A stretch of DNA of 40,296 nt from a virus (lineage: Duplodnaviria > Heunggongvirae > Uroviricota > Caudoviricetes). Under the pieces are notes generated by a model, which ran no database searches, was not told where the DNA came from, and worked only from the letters and a program-made list of their open reading frames with translations. Made by a program: the position numbers and the translations under genes. The stretch lies in IMG/VR virus record IMGVR_UViG_2585427770_000004. One strand, written 5' to 3'. This document shows positions 33,881 to 37,772 of this stretch, one piece after another (the stretch's first letter is position 1; each line of letters opens with the position of its first letter).

Positions 33881-34066
33881 TTATGCCGCTTGGCGGTAAG
33901 CACTTTCTTGATACTTCAGGGCGCCAGCTGTAACGATTTCCAATCGATAGGCGTCTTTCTCTGGGATAACTTCTTTCCACTGAGAGACTGCTGCATCGCT
34001 AATGCCTAGTGCTTTAGCAACAGCACGCTGGGTTCCGAAGTGGTCAATAACATCTTTTTTGTACAT
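33881..34066 (-). CDS. cro: Cro repressor
   Basis: 61 aa MYKKDVIDHFGTQRAVAKALGISDAAVSQWKEVIPEKDAYRLEIVTAGALKYQESAYRQAA, near-identical to P22 Cro as recalled. Confidence 0.9.
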   Translation of the reverse strand: MYKKDVIDHFGTQRAVAKALGISDAAVSQWKEVIPEKDAYRLEIVTAGALKYQESAYRQAA

Positions 34067-34146: not shown

Positions 34147-34797
34147 ATGAATACACAACTGATGGGTGAGCGTATTCGCGCTCGCAGAAAAGAACTCAAG
34201 ATTAGGCAGGCTGCCCTTGGCAAGATGGTTGGCGTGTCTAATGTTGCTATTTCCCAATGGGAGCGATCTGAAACTGAGCCCAATGGCGAAAACCTATTGG
34301 CCTTAGCCAAGGCTTTGCAGTGCTCCCCTGATTACCTGTTGAAAGGAGAGGATAGTCTTTCAAACATTGCCTATCACAGCAGGCATGATCCAAGAGGTTC
34401 GTATCCTCTAATTAGTTGGGTAAGCGCAGGATGTTGGATGGAAGCTGTAGAGCCATATCATAGGCGTGCAATAGATAACTGGTACGACACAACGGTAGAT
34501 TGTTCTGAAGACTCTTTTTGGCTCGACGTTAAAGGCGATTCAATGACTGCCCCGGCAGGACTGAGTATTCCTGAGGGGATGATTATTCTCGTCGACCCAG
34601 AAGTCGAACCACGTAATGGAAAGTTGGTAGTCGCCAAACTTGAAGGAGAAAACGAGGCGACATTCAAAAAGTTAGTTATTGATGCCGGTAGAAAATTCCT
34701 GAAACCACTCAATCCACAATACCCAATGATTGAAATCAATGGGAACTGTAAAATCATTGGCGTTGTCGTTGATGCCAAGCTAGCAAACCTTCCTTAA
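34147..34797 (+). CDS. c2: C2 repressor (HTH plus S24 autopeptidase domain)
   Basis: 216 aa MNTQLMGERIRARRKELKIRQAALGKMVGVSNVAISQWERSETEPNGENLLALAKALQCSPDYLL..., near-identical to P22 C2 as recalled. Confidence 0.9.
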   Translation: MNTQLMGERIRARRKELKIRQAALGKMVGVSNVAISQWERSETEPNGENLLALAKALQCSPDYLLKGEDSLSNIAYHSRHDPRGSYPLISWVSAGCWMEAVEPYHRRAIDNWYDTTVDCSEDSFWLDVKGDSMTAPAGLSIPEGMIILVDPEVEPRNGKLVVAKLEGENEATFKKLVIDAGRKFLKPLNPQYPMIEINGNCKIIGVVVDAKLANLP

Positions 34798-34820
34798 GGG
34801 GCTTTCGCCCCTTTTTTATT
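34796..34820 (+). terminator. Rho-independent terminator after c2
   Basis: AAGGGGCTTTCGCCCCTT followed by TTTTTATTT. Confidence 0.65.
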
Positions 34821-34859
34821 TCCCGTTAAAAATCAAAGACAAACTAAATTCACGCCCAT

Positions 34860-34920
34860 ATAATTAAGTTTTCTTCAAAAATGCACTTGACCAATAAATT
34901 AAGAAGTCTTAAATTTAAGC
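34860..34920 (+). promoter_or_regulatory. OL operators and pL promoter
   Basis: Operator-like AATTAAGAAGTCTTAAAT and AATTAAGTTTTCTTCAAA; -35 TTGACC at 34887-34892 with a TAAATT -10 candidate. Confidence 0.55.
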
Positions 34921-34961
34921 CATCAGCAGGACGCTGGAAGCCAAACGGAACAGATTGGCAG

Positions 34962-35001
34962 GCTCTTTAACATCGACGGACTCTCAACCTAACCGTTGAG
35001 A
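34962..35001 (+). promoter_or_regulatory. nutL-like site (boxA plus boxB hairpin)
   Basis: boxA-like GCTCTTTAA (34962-34970); 11 nt later hairpin TCTCAAC-CTAACC-GTTGAGA (34982-35001). Confidence 0.6.
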
Positions 35002-35111
35002 CCAGAACTTGAGTGGTTTTGGGGATGGTGCGAATTGCAGCTGCAAGACAGCGATCGAGAAGATAAGCACCTCGACGCGTCATGCGCCAAAGCCACTTAA
35101 AGGAGACCATC

Positions 35112-35384
35112 ATGGTAACCATTGTCTGGAAAGAATCCAAAGGTACGGCAAAAAGCCGCTACAAAGCTCGCAGAGCAGAACTTATTGCCGAGAGACGCAG
35201 TAATGAAGCACTGGCGCGAAAAATTGCGCTAAAGCTCTCTGGTTGCGTCAGAGCAGACAAAGCAGCATCACTTGGCAGCCTTCTCAGCAAGAAGGCAGAT
35301 GAATGCAGTGGAAGTATTTGCCTGCCAAACGTAGCCATTTACTCGGCAGGCTACCGGAAATCAAAACAACTGACGGCGAGGTAA
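35112..35384 (+). CDS. N-like early antiterminator (P22 gene 24 analogue)
   Basis: 90 aa from ATG at 35112 with AGGAG RBS; arginine-rich N-terminus; C-terminus LPNVAIYSAGYRKSKQLTAR parallels P22 gp24 LPGVALYAAGHRKSKQITAR as recalled. Confidence 0.75.
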   Translation: MVTIVWKESKGTAKSRYKARRAELIAERRSNEALARKIALKLSGCVRADKAASLGSLLSKKADECSGSICLPNVAIYSAGYRKSKQLTAR

Positions 35385-35387
35385 GTG

Positions 35388-35612
35388 ATGAATCAGACAT
35401 ACATTCCATCATGCTTGAGAAATCTGCCAAAGCAGAAAGCAAAGCCCCGCAAGCAAGCCATAAAGGGCGCTAAGGCAGAGGTTATTGAACAAGCAATACA
35501 ATTGCTCAGGGAGGAGTTAAGAAGTGGCAAGCTCGAAGGAATGATGATGCCCTATCAGCGCGGATATCTATCGGCGATTAGTAAGTTGGAAGTATTGAAG
35601 AGTGAATTATGA
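35388..35612 (+). CDS. Hypothetical early-left protein
   Basis: 74 aa (GTG at 35385 or ATG at 35388), lysine-rich N-terminus, directly after gene 24. Confidence 0.45.
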   Translation: MNQTYIPSCLRNLPKQKAKPRKQAIKGAKAEVIEQAIQLLREELRSGKLEGMMMPYQRGYLSAISKLEVLKSEL

Positions 35613-35674
35613 ACTATCTGGAATTTCCGGATGGTTCATTGTTTTGGCAGCAAACCACTTATTTGAGGTGAGAT

Positions 35675-36145
35675 ATGACAATATCATGGAGCGTACCTTT
35701 TCCTGAATCAGAAACTGAACATGATGGAATGCCTGTTTTCTGGAGATTCCAGGCGACAGTTGAAGAAGATGGAATCAAAATATTCGCACTTCAATATATA
35801 GCCTTTCATCAGACAGAGCATTATGCATGGTTGGTTCCTGCGCATTGGATTGTTAATTTTAAACCAGCACCAAATCAGTGGTTACAGGAATGGAAACAAA
35901 AGAGAAATAGATATGCAATTAAGAAAGTAGCAAAAAATGCAGAAAGATCTTTTGCATTCCCAACGAAGAAACTTGCCATTGAAAGTTTATTGCGCCGGAA
36001 GAAATACCATTTAATGAGAATCAAACAAGATTTGGCTGTTGTATCAACTCTTGTTGATGGGATGAAGAATATTGATACATCAACACCAGATATTGAATAT
36101 AACTTTGGACACAACCAAGAAACAGAAAATTGGGTATTTTATTAG
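35675..36145 (+). CDS. Hypothetical early-left protein (AT-rich cargo)
   Basis: 156 aa; no family recognised; followed by a hairpin and a terminator. Confidence 0.5.
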   Translation: MTISWSVPFPESETEHDGMPVFWRFQATVEEDGIKIFALQYIAFHQTEHYAWLVPAHWIVNFKPAPNQWLQEWKQKRNRYAIKKVAKNAERSFAFPTKKLAIESLLRRKKYHLMRIKQDLAVVSTLVDGMKNIDTSTPDIEYNFGHNQETENWVFY

Positions 36146-36249
36146 TACAAATAAGCACTGTGTATTCATTCCAACGAGTGAATACACGGAGCAATGTCGC
36201 TCGTAACGAAACAGGAGCCGACTTGTTCTGATTATTGGAAATCTTCTTT

Positions 36250-36277
36250 GCCCTCCTATGTGAGGGCGATTTTTTAT
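36250..36277 (+). terminator. Rho-independent terminator inside the early-left operon
   Basis: GCCCTC-CTATGT-GAGGGC followed by GATTTTTTAT. Confidence 0.6.
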
Positions 36278-36295
36278 CTGTGAGGATATGAACAG

Positions 36296-36664
36296 ATGTC
36301 AAACATCAAAAAATACATCATTGATTACGACTGGAAAGCATCAATAGAAATTGAAATCGACCATGACGTAATGACAGAGGAAAAACTTCACCAGATTAAT
36401 AATTTCTGGTCAGACTCTGAATACCGACTCAATAAACACGGCTCTGTATTAAATGCTGTATTAATCATGCTGGCGCAACATGCTCTGCTTATAGCAATTT
36501 CAAGCGACTTAAATGCATATGGTGTTGTGTGTGAGTTCGACTGGAATGATGGAAATGGTCAGGAAGGATGGCCTCCAATGGATGGTAGCGAAGGAATAAG
36601 AATTACCGATATCGATACATCAGGAATATTTGATTCAGATGATATGACTATCAAAGCCGCCTGA
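36296..36664 (+). CDS. Acidic hypothetical protein (candidate anti-restriction / anti-defence)
   Basis: 122 aa with many D/E (EIEIDHDVMTEE, DWNDGNGQEGWPPMDGSEGIRITDIDTSGIFDSDDM); located in the early-left slot where lambda carries ral. Confidence 0.5.
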   Translation: MSNIKKYIIDYDWKASIEIEIDHDVMTEEKLHQINNFWSDSEYRLNKHGSVLNAVLIMLAQHALLIAISSDLNAYGVVCEFDWNDGNGQEGWPPMDGSEGIRITDIDTSGIFDSDDMTIKAA

Positions 36665-36739
36665 GCGCGGCGTTACCGCATACCAATAACGCTTCACTCG
36701 AGGCGTTTTCGTTATGCAATCAAACAGAAGGAGCATCCT

Positions 36740-36910
36740 ATGCAACAGTTCGCTATTGCAGGGGCGGCATCGGTTCGCCCTTTCAACCCGATTTTATCGG
36801 TACAGCATTCACGAAAGAATATTTTAACCGGAGCAGACTTTAAACAACCAAGAATGAAAAGTTTGCTCGAAAAGCTTTGGGATATTTTGAAACAACAAGG
36901 CCGCCCATGA
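36740..36910 (+). CDS. CIII-like protein
   Basis: 56 aa MQQFAIAGAAS...SLLEKLWDILKQQGRP parallels lambda CIII MQYAIAG...LLERITRKLRDGWKRLIDILNQPG; AAGGAG RBS; under the track size cut-off. Confidence 0.6.
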   Translation: MQQFAIAGAASVRPFNPILSVQHSRKNILTGADFKQPRMKSLLEKLWDILKQQGRP

Positions 36911-37065
36911 GTTTTACAGATAACTGGTCAGACGAAGAATTCATTCGTCAGATGAAAGAATTAATCGGTAACGAAGGAGATATTCATGTCACTTGCAACC
37001 ACAGTGAAGGAGAGCAAGTTACAGAGACGCATGTACACGCAGAAAGCTCTCTGGTATCGCCATAA
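36907..37065 (+). CDS. Kil-position small protein
   Basis: 52 aa MSFTDNWSDEEFIRQMKEL...; ATGA overlap with the cIII-like stop; assignment by position only. Confidence 0.35.
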   Translation: MSFTDNWSDEEFIRQMKELIGNEGDIHVTCNHSEGEQVTETHVHAESSLVSP

Positions 37066-37166
37066 TGGCGACCGCGAAGGAATGCGGGTATGCCTTAATT
37101 TGTCCCGAGTCGAAGTATTAAATCAGCGTTATTTCCTTGGGCCATGTCCATTCTGAGAACAAACAT

Positions 37167-37772
37167 ATGAGCAAAGAATTTTACGCAAGACTGGCAGCTA
37201 TTCAGGAGAATCTGAACGCGCCAAAGAATCAGTACAACTCATTCGGTAAATATAAATACAGAAGCTGCGAAGACATTCTTGAAGGCGTTAAGCCGTTACT
37301 GAATGGCCTGTTTTTATCAATCAGCGATGAAGTTGTGTTGATTGGTGATCGGTATTACGTGAAAGCCACGGCAACTATTACCGATGGCGAAAACAGTCAT
37401 ACGGCAACTGCTCTTGCACGAGAGGAAGAAAGCAAGAAAGGAATGGATTCTGCACAAGTTACTGGAGCTACAAGCTCTTATGCGCGCAAGTATTGCCTCA
37501 ATGGTTTGTTCGGCATTGATGATGCGAAAGATGCAGATACCGACGAACATAAACATCAGCAGAACGCAGCAGCAAAGCAATCAAAACCATCACCTACACC
37601 TGAACAGGTTCTAAAAGCATTCACTGACGCAGCAATGCAAAAAAACACCGTGGAAGAGCTTAAACAGGCGTTCGCCAAAGCGTGGAAGATGCTCGAAGGA
37701 ACACCGGAGCAGCACAAAGCGCAGGACGTTTACAACATCAGACGAGACGAATTAGAAGGAGCGGCTGCTTAA
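37167..37772 (+). CDS. erf: Erf single-strand annealing recombinase
   Basis: From internal ATG at 37167: MSKEFYARLAAIQENLNAPKNQYNSFGKYKYRSCEDILEGVKPLLNGLFLSISDEVVLIGDRYYVKATATITDGENSH..., near-identical to P22 Erf as recalled. Confidence 0.85.
   Translation: MSKEFYARLAAIQENLNAPKNQYNSFGKYKYRSCEDILEGVKPLLNGLFLSISDEVVLIGDRYYVKATATITDGENSHTATALAREEESKKGMDSAQVTGATSSYARKYCLNGLFGIDDAKDADTDEHKHQQNAAAKQSKPSPTPEQVLKAFTDAAMQKNTVEELKQAFAKAWKMLEGTPEQHKAQDVYNIRRDELEGAAA

Follow-up and report, generated by a model that had tools for sequence, protein, structure and literature searches.

Two described genes mark a variable accessory slot behind gene N in the early-left (pL) operon of lambdoid phages. In lambda the slot holds orf28-ral, encoding the anti-restriction protein Ral (PF11058), and the same accessory region has supplied orf184, which triggers gop-beta-cII abortive infection (Abi) (Silas et al., bioRxiv 10.1101/2023.04.06.535777). 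The orf184 product is gp45 of phage mEp213 (AFM76385.1), a protein of 107 amino acids (aa) in family phrog_1372. Because ral and orf184 have both been published from this position, the accessory nature of the slot was recognised before. Here we describe its content in a viral DNA stretch of 40,296 nucleotides (nt) (Caudoviricetes; IMG/VR record IMGVR_UViG_2585427770_000004), the whole of which is referred to as the window. Its closest relatives are phiv205-1, CUS-3, Kapi1, and HK620, and by sequence it is a P22-like phage of Escherichia coli, of the HK620/CUS-3 type. Two open reading frames (ORFs) of the window, ORF-A and ORF-B, lie at positions 35388-36145. Comparison with related phages identifies them as two independent, horizontally exchanged accessory cassettes of the lambdoid pL operon, in its variable stretch from N to cIII.

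ORF-A, ORF-B and their linkers

An earlier note on this DNA had described the two ORFs as unassigned genes of the pL operon, followed by a hairpin and a terminator, and had considered host-takeover or exclusion functions typical of such genes. Both ORFs proved to be real at the positions it gave and conserved across genera. They are delimited by the following features:

35388-35612, plus strand: ORF-A, 74 aa, isoelectric point (pI) 9.87, start codon ATG at 35388, stop codon at 35610-35612, family phrog_5305
35643-35674, plus strand: 5' linker, a conserved 32-nt junction, GGCAGCAAACCACTTATTTGAGGTGAgat (GGCAGCAAACCACTTATTTGAGGTGAnnTATG; GGCAGCAAACCACTTATTTGAGGTGA..ATG to 35677)
35675-36145, plus strand: ORF-B, 156 aa, soluble, pI 8.76, family phrog_1636
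36155-36290, plus strand: 3' linker, a non-coding block of ~135 nt that contains the 36158-36190 hairpin and the terminator

The start codon of ORF-B follows a GAGGTGA motif after 3 nt, and the gene is AT-rich, with a GC content of 35.9% (28% at third codon positions) against 46.5% for the whole window. The phrog_1636 profile covers residues 1-156 of 156 (E=3e-111). At the protein level ORF-B is 98-99% identical to HK97 gp45, 933W L0079, and an unannotated homologue in H-19B, which identifies it, by sequence identity, as their orthologue. The label "unassigned" is therefore true of function, but both families are catalogued, that of ORF-A as phrog_5305 and that of ORF-B as phrog_1636, the family of HK97 gp45 and 933W L0079. 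Full-length ORF-B homologues with 55-85% identity and 40 invariant columns were found in Pectobacterium, Cronobacter, Brenneria, and Rosenbergiella, and a profile search of 1.8 billion representative proteins returned 87 family representatives (clustered at 50%) at E<1e-3. All 25 distinct ORF-B variants sampled are intact, and their variation falls preferentially on third codon positions; close alleles differ by 17 amino-acid-changing versus 18 purely synonymous codons. The ORF-A/ORF-B segment was matched in part, mostly over ORF-B, in 753 of 5426 complete E. coli genomes (~14%), where it is annotated as hypothetical. The ORF-B protein has an acidic N-terminus, a basic core (+13, residues 61-120), and a conserved acidic/aromatic C-terminal tail (...ETENWVFY, or ...F-D in distant members). 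Its predicted secondary structure begins with strands at the N-terminus and continues in helices, one of them long (residues 98-130). The structure model is unreliable, with a predicted local distance difference test score (pLDDT) of 57.8, and the fold-search results obtained with it are uninformative for that reason.

Distant ORF-B relatives occur in early regions of unrelated phages and contigs, three of them heading a divergent early gene cluster and a fourth standing second. Their neighbours are RecE, the set RecT/YqaJ/SSB, a DNA pol III beta-like gene, and Rha, DNA-binding, or replication-type genes. Upstream of the members heading early clusters (our loci L134, 5001-5462; L137 and L138, 5001-5414; L007, 3001-3477) there are gaps of 118-496 nt.

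The ATG of ORF-A is located 4 nt past the stop codon of gene 24, the N-type antiterminator gene, with a GAGG 6 nt upstream, and GTG at 35385 is an alternative start. Taken in its 75-aa GTG-start form, the protein matches the phrog_5305 profile full-length (E=7.6e-37; residues 2-75 versus profile positions 1-71 of 71). Homologues fall into 41 clusters, mostly of 74 aa and with identity down to 57%. Orthologues with 97% identity are present in mEp213, mEpX2, ECP1, and phi367; those of mEp213 (gp46) and mEpX2 (gp40) each lie 3 nt after a P22/HK620-type gene 24. Remoter relatives (38-55% identity) were detected in HK225, in Erwinia and Pseudomonas phages, and in Sasha-type and BASEL-collection siphophages, the latter two groups of which we take to be virulent. 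All seven distinct ORF-A variants sampled are intact and again enriched for variation at third codon positions. The structure prediction proposed in the earlier note succeeded for this protein, for which AlphaFold gave a confident model (pLDDT 85) of a disordered Lys-rich N-terminal tail followed by a two-helix hairpin, but a fold search of the PDB returned only generic helical matches and none pointing to a function; for ORF-B the model was poor. Based on these results, we concluded that ORF-A and ORF-B are genuine conserved protein-coding genes with strong ribosome-binding sites.

The placement of ORF-A relatives varies outside the P22-like phages. In HK225 the homologue (49% identity; L011, 1676-2213) comes first behind an annotated promoter, and the annotation shows no N gene; such a place at the head of an operon is unusual for the family. 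In Salmonella phage Sasha (L012, 1810-2443) the relative, gp03, belongs to a three-gene opposite-strand cluster that is inserted between the small and large terminase genes.

The cassette organisation emerges from the flanks. In an alignment of the 5' side of the window with 933W, HK97, mEp213, mEpX2, and phi367, ORF-A with its hairpin (35385 to ~35642) forms a 258-nt insertion relative to 933W and HK97, located between the conserved N/24 3' end and the 32-nt junction. The junction supplies a Shine-Dalgarno sequence and a start codon to differing downstream genes in different phages, and its exact 26-mer is present in at least 120 IMG/VR contigs, before at least nine unrelated first genes; it thus looks like a recombination linker for cassette exchange. 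On the other side, the block at 36155-36290 matches positions 33911-34046 of lambda (the ral-ea10 spacer) and hundreds of lambdoid records at 97-98% identity, and it is nearly invariant in lambda, HK97, 933W, mEpX2, mEp213, and phi367, irrespective of the gene upstream of it.

Between the two linkers the content is combinatorial and spans 243-1493 nt. The occupants include gp45/ORF-B, orf28-ral in the lambda arrangement, a 149-aa phrog_3054 protein with hydrophobic stretches, proteins of 83, 107, and 98 aa, a 207-aa Nmad5-domain protein, DUF7446 and DUF7167 proteins, and others; besides orf28-ral and orf184, about ten small genes take this place in other phages. The accessory nature of the two genes is upheld by this variable content between conserved flanks and by the presence of ral and the Abi trigger orf184 at the same position in other phages. 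Only 18 of the 5426 E. coli genomes have ORF-A and ORF-B side by side, and in phi367 they are separated by an inserted ral, which argues for two separate cassettes; a cooperating two-gene system was considered and rejected for the same two reasons. Since phi367 and some E. coli prophages carry ral and ORF-B together, these two genes are not simple alternatives for one place.

Several further observations concern other cassettes of this region. The Nmad5 protein (PF18757, nucleotide-modification-associated domain 5; E=7e-72) follows ral in loci L064, L067, L070, L118, and L130. Endings of the type ...KAA or ...EAA recur across unrelated cassette proteins of the window (36296-36664) and of loci L017, L015, L009, and L064: NNKAA in Ral, TIKAA in Ea10, VDKAA in orf184, YNKAA in the 83-aa protein, and SEAA in the Nmad5 protein. 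These shared ends suggest a second conserved junction that would reach into the 3' coding ends and that ORF-B does not share. The ea10 gene is itself a cassette, lacking in HK97 and phi367, where the terminator block joins AACGCTTCACTCGAGGCGTTTTCGTTATG directly; in the window AACGCTTCACTCGAGGCGTTTTCGTTATG follows ea10 as a terminator-like site at 36688-36707 (compared segments: 36665-36720; L008, 3100-3165; L003).

Operon context and RNA signals

The elements surrounding the two genes are, in order:

34147-34797: c2-type repressor gene, upstream of the early-left promoter region
34796-34813: terminator-like hairpin at the end of the c2 repressor gene
34836-34864: second promoter-like site
34887-34915, plus strand: candidate pL promoter, TTGACC-17-TAAATT, from a promoter scan and the sequence, overlapping a palindromic operator-like sequence
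34961-35001, plus strand: candidate nutL, a boxA-like GGCTCTTTAA (34961-34970) and a 7-bp hairpin (34982-35001), read from the sequence
35082-35384, plus strand: gene 24, N-type antiterminator (Pfam N_peptide, E=2.9e-16; phrog_271)
35609-35645, plus strand: hairpin of 14 pairs with UUGUUUUGG behind it, in the 3' end of the ORF-A cassette, from a terminator scan
35609-35671, plus strand: mini-ORF of 20 codons with an ATGA overlap with the ORF-A stop codon, in the frame of ORF-B and separated from it by one TGA
36158-36190, plus strand: hairpin of ~14 pairs without a U-tract, including the 9-mers GTGTATTCA (36160-36168) and TGAATACAC (36179-36187)
36250-36277, plus strand: predicted intrinsic terminator, GCCCTCC/GGAGGGC, with a GC-rich stem of 7-8 bp, a 6-nt loop, and T6
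36296-36664, plus strand: Ea10 homologue (Pfam DUF2528, E=1.8e-47), the next cassette downstream of ORF-B

The succession of c2 gene, hairpin, promoter/operator-like sequence, boxA-like element with hairpin, and gene 24 indicates that the early-left operon reads on the plus strand. From its placement just after the c2 gene and its hairpin, we infer that the promoter at 34887-34915 is pL. The putative nutL has a counterpart in mEpX2, where a "putative Nut boxA site" is annotated at an equivalent distance upstream of N. The boxB consensus of P22 nutL was sought as well and is absent, the nut-like hairpin of the window being of another type. The probable start of gene 24 is the ATG at 35112, located behind an AGGAG and yielding 90 aa, rather than the longest-ORF start at 35082; orthologues are annotated at 90 aa in mEp213 and 87 aa in mEpX2. 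Behind ORF-B the same operon runs on into Ea10, Erf, and SSB, and the counterparts of the Ea10 homologue are annotated as ssb/Ea10 in 933W and as ea10 in lambda.

In the pL operon ORF-A and ORF-B stand second and third, behind gene 24, and not first as the earlier note had it. A consensus scan found no promoter-like site between gene 24 and ORF-B, although a weak or non-sigma-70 promoter could escape such a scan. Since no separate promoter was found and a pL/OL-like promoter, a nutL-like boxA with hairpin, and gene 24 all lie upstream, early N-dependent expression from pL is the reasonable reading, in line with the early expression that the earlier note had proposed.

The hairpin at 35609-35645 folds at -25.2 kcal/mol (z=-3.0) and is identical in mEp213, mEpX2, and phi367; it may act as a weak intrinsic terminator or in RNA stability. 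It starts exactly at the ORF-A stop codon, so that a terminating ribosome would cover its 5' arm, and we speculate that translation of ORF-A could influence its formation. The mini-ORF that begins at the same position is probably not a gene. Positions 1-20 of the phrog_37429 profile cover the mini-ORF and positions 23-76 the N-terminus of ORF-B, and the two appear to be joined in some database proteins.

The hairpin that the earlier note had reported behind ORF-B does exist, but its position of 36171-36198 was wrong: the 9-mers lie at 36160-36187, within a stem of ~14 pairs at 36158-36190. This hairpin may serve in processing, in stabilisation, or as a linker. The terminator coordinates were exact, and with the hairpin corrected the earlier observation as a whole is confirmed, while its interpretation is partly supported. 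The stem, loop, and T6 at 36250-36277 are those expected of a rho-independent terminator; the HK97 annotation has a terminator at the orthologous site, and "terminator" features also underlie matches to the block in HK75 and mEpX1. The segment 36146-36295 folds with z=-5.8 against shuffled sequences. Terminator-like sites number six in the region, compared with 2.4 +/- 1.4 expected, and no Rfam family was detected in 34700-37200. Minus-strand ORFs of 45-93 aa and a 29-aa ORF at 36194-36283 in the terminator block were rejected as genes, neither matching a PHROG family. The 29-aa ORF has a GGAG only 2 nt before its ATG, and phi367 annotates a small coding sequence in the corresponding block.

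Possible roles of the two proteins

Searches of Pfam, NCBIfam, PADLOC, and PDB sequences with the single ORF-A and ORF-B proteins, and of Pfam and PDB sequences with family alignments (64 ORF-B and 25 ORF-A members), gave nothing significant, and the PADLOC-DB matches were at chance level (E ~0.01 over 14-46 residues). The PHROG matches belong exclusively to families of unknown function. Family searches also found no homology to a housekeeping phage protein, the outcome that the earlier note had named as decisive against its proposal. Neither protein matched the Ral family (PF11058) in Pfam at E<=1. Both are basic, unlike DNA mimics of the Ocr/ArdA type, and no fold match to these was obtained (the ORF-B model being unreliable). 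The maximum Kyte-Doolittle values over 19-residue windows are 0.32 for ORF-A and 0.56 for ORF-B, indicating that neither carries the hydrophobic segment of a SieB/Imm/Cor-type membrane protein. A literature search for 933W L0079, HK97 gp45, and tL2 terminators returned nothing relevant and no published function for any ORF-B family member, and a proteomics paper on Phi24B lysogens lists no protein with the mass and pI of ORF-B.

The explanation that we favour, tentatively and at somewhat under even weight, is that ORF-A and ORF-B stay silent in a lysogen, that both are expressed early through N antitermination, and that their soluble products bind and modulate a host or defence component. On infection or induction, transcription would start from pL, and gp24 (N) would let RNA polymerase pass the 35609-35645 hairpin and the 36250-36277 terminator. 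Both proteins would be dispensable, soluble, and cytoplasmic, and their binding of a host or defence component early in the lytic cycle would amount to counter-defence or host modulation. ORF-A might work as a helical hairpin, small and perhaps dimeric, that bears a Lys-rich tail, and ORF-B through its basic core and its conserved aromatic/acidic C-terminal tail. The linkers would have two uses, one in expression, through their Shine-Dalgarno sequence and terminator, and one in cassette swapping, for which they would offer patches of homology. The conservation of the two genes, their cassette structure and mutual independence, the known slot occupants ral and orf184, the operon position, the soluble nature of the proteins, and the relatives outside lambdoid prophages together support this explanation. 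With low confidence, we also prefer host- or defence-modulating soluble proteins to membrane exclusion proteins.

Several points weigh against this explanation. The PADLOC, Pfam, NCBIfam, PDB-sequence, and fold searches link neither protein to a defence system. Guilt by location is weak, because most slot occupants are themselves uncharacterised. The strongly basic core of ORF-B is equally consistent with nucleic-acid binding, and its structure model cannot be relied upon. Transcription, termination, and antitermination of the region are read from sequence. Finally, a string and motif search of the 200-gene accessory screen (Silas et al.) found ORF-A, ORF-B, and motif-bearing relatives all absent from it. 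A bolder version, in which the ORF-B family would be a new class of immediate-early effector (inhibitor of a widespread host defence, or host-takeover factor), working through the basic core and the C-terminal tail, and ORF-A a second, independent small inhibitor, we regard as rather doubtful; it is prompted by the sizeable ORF-B family, which has no Pfam model or detected fold, is spread over lambdoid and unrelated phages, and includes several members that head early clusters.

Alternatively, ORF-B, with its basic core between acidic ends, and possibly ORF-A as well, would be a nucleic-acid-binding regulator of phage development, such as an early transcription or RNA factor, rather than a defence inhibitor. 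The long helix at 98-130 after short strands in the unreliable ORF-B model, the Lys-rich N-terminal tail of ORF-A, the placement of its HK225 homologue first after an annotated promoter, and the Cro-like placement of distant ORF-B members at the head of divergent early clusters, with Rha-, DNA-binding- or replication-type genes behind them, are all consistent with such a role. However, no helix-turn-helix, ribbon-helix-helix, or other DNA-binding family was found among the 64 ORF-B and 25 ORF-A members; the cassette is absent from many close relatives and exchangeable with unrelated ones, which would be unusual for a core regulator; and the lambdoid placement is after N, not in the Cro or CI position. 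We consider a regulator unlikely.

Still less likely is a role in DNA metabolism or recombination, with the two proteins acting as modulators of a nuclease, SSB, or recombination partner alongside the downstream Erf/SSB module. The continuation of the operon into Ea10, Erf, and SSB fits this role, as do the distant ORF-B relatives that adjoin RecE or RecT, YqaJ, and SSB or lie near a DNA pol III beta-like gene. The aromatic/acidic C-terminus of ORF-B resembles the partner-docking C-terminal tips of SSB-type proteins. Yet linkage to recombination genes may reflect mere membership of early operons, the ORF-B cassette is found with Red-type (933W) and Erf-type (HK97 and the window) modules alike, and neither sequence nor fold searches showed a likeness to Gam, Abc, or other nuclease modulators.

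The exclusion half of the functions suggested by the earlier note fared worse than the host-takeover half. Prophage-expressed defence or superinfection-exclusion genes protecting the lysogen would be in keeping with the annotation of SieB in the equivalent N-ral interval of lambda, with the hydrophobic stretches of the 149-aa phrog_3054 protein as an alternative slot occupant, and with the AT-rich, moron-like composition of ORF-B. Nevertheless, ORF-A and ORF-B lie behind pL, which the repressor shuts off in a lysogen, and between gene 24 and ORF-B the consensus scan found no promoter-like site. Hydrophobic segments are lacking in both proteins, PADLOC gave no match at a meaningful E-value, and relatives are present beyond lambdoid prophages, those of ORF-A in siphophages of the Sasha type and the BASEL collection and those of ORF-B at the head of early clusters in unrelated phages. 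Protection of the lysogen therefore appears improbable. That one or both ORFs are non-functional remnants between conserved recombination linkers, as the lack of a known function and the 17 amino-acid-changing versus 18 purely synonymous codons of close ORF-B alleles might suggest, is scarcely credible given length-conserved ORF-B homologues with 55-85% identity across Enterobacterales genera and 40 invariant columns, an 87-representative remote family, sampled alleles that are all intact with an excess of third-position variation, strong Shine-Dalgarno sites, and a confident ORF-A fold.

ORF-A and ORF-B represent an ordinary lambdoid mosaic arrangement, a routine pair of ORFans in a known slot. 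They are also well-delimited and reasonable candidates for anti-defence or Abi-trigger screening: they are predicted to be switched on among the first genes after infection or induction, many Shiga-toxin (Stx) phages carry the segment (mostly its ORF-B part), and the hotspot is already the source of an anti-restriction protein and an Abi trigger. Should either protein disable or trip a host defence, it would add a new counter-defence or trigger family and would go some way to account for how Stx and P22-like phages differ in plating and induction.

Comparison with described slot occupants

Among the described systems, SieB of lambda and P22 has a similar address, being annotated in the N-proximal interval of lambda that is equivalent to the place of ORF-A and ORF-B. 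The two proteins differ from it in having no match to a SieB-named family, no hydrophobic segment, and no detected promoter of their own. HK97 gp45 and 933W L0079 are like ORF-B in sharing the 32-nt upstream junction and the downstream hairpin-plus-terminator block. In HK97 and 933W this gene directly follows N, 29 nt after the conserved N 3' end, whereas the ORF-A cassette intervenes in the window. The mEp213 gene for gp45 (orf184) occupies the exact position of ORF-B, with an ORF-A orthologue and the 32-nt junction immediately before it; the protein is unrelated to ORF-B, and triggering of gop-beta-cII is known for orf184, not for ORF-B.

Lambda orf28-ral shares the slot, the junction, the 3' block, and the operon with ORF-B. 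Ral is a small, dispensable, early protein, to which ORF-A and ORF-B bear no sequence similarity. The lambda ral-ea10 block probably belongs to the "tL2" terminators, a cluster described by Luk and Szybalski. Its counterpart in the window, 97-98% identical to it, includes a canonical GC-stem and T6 terminator.

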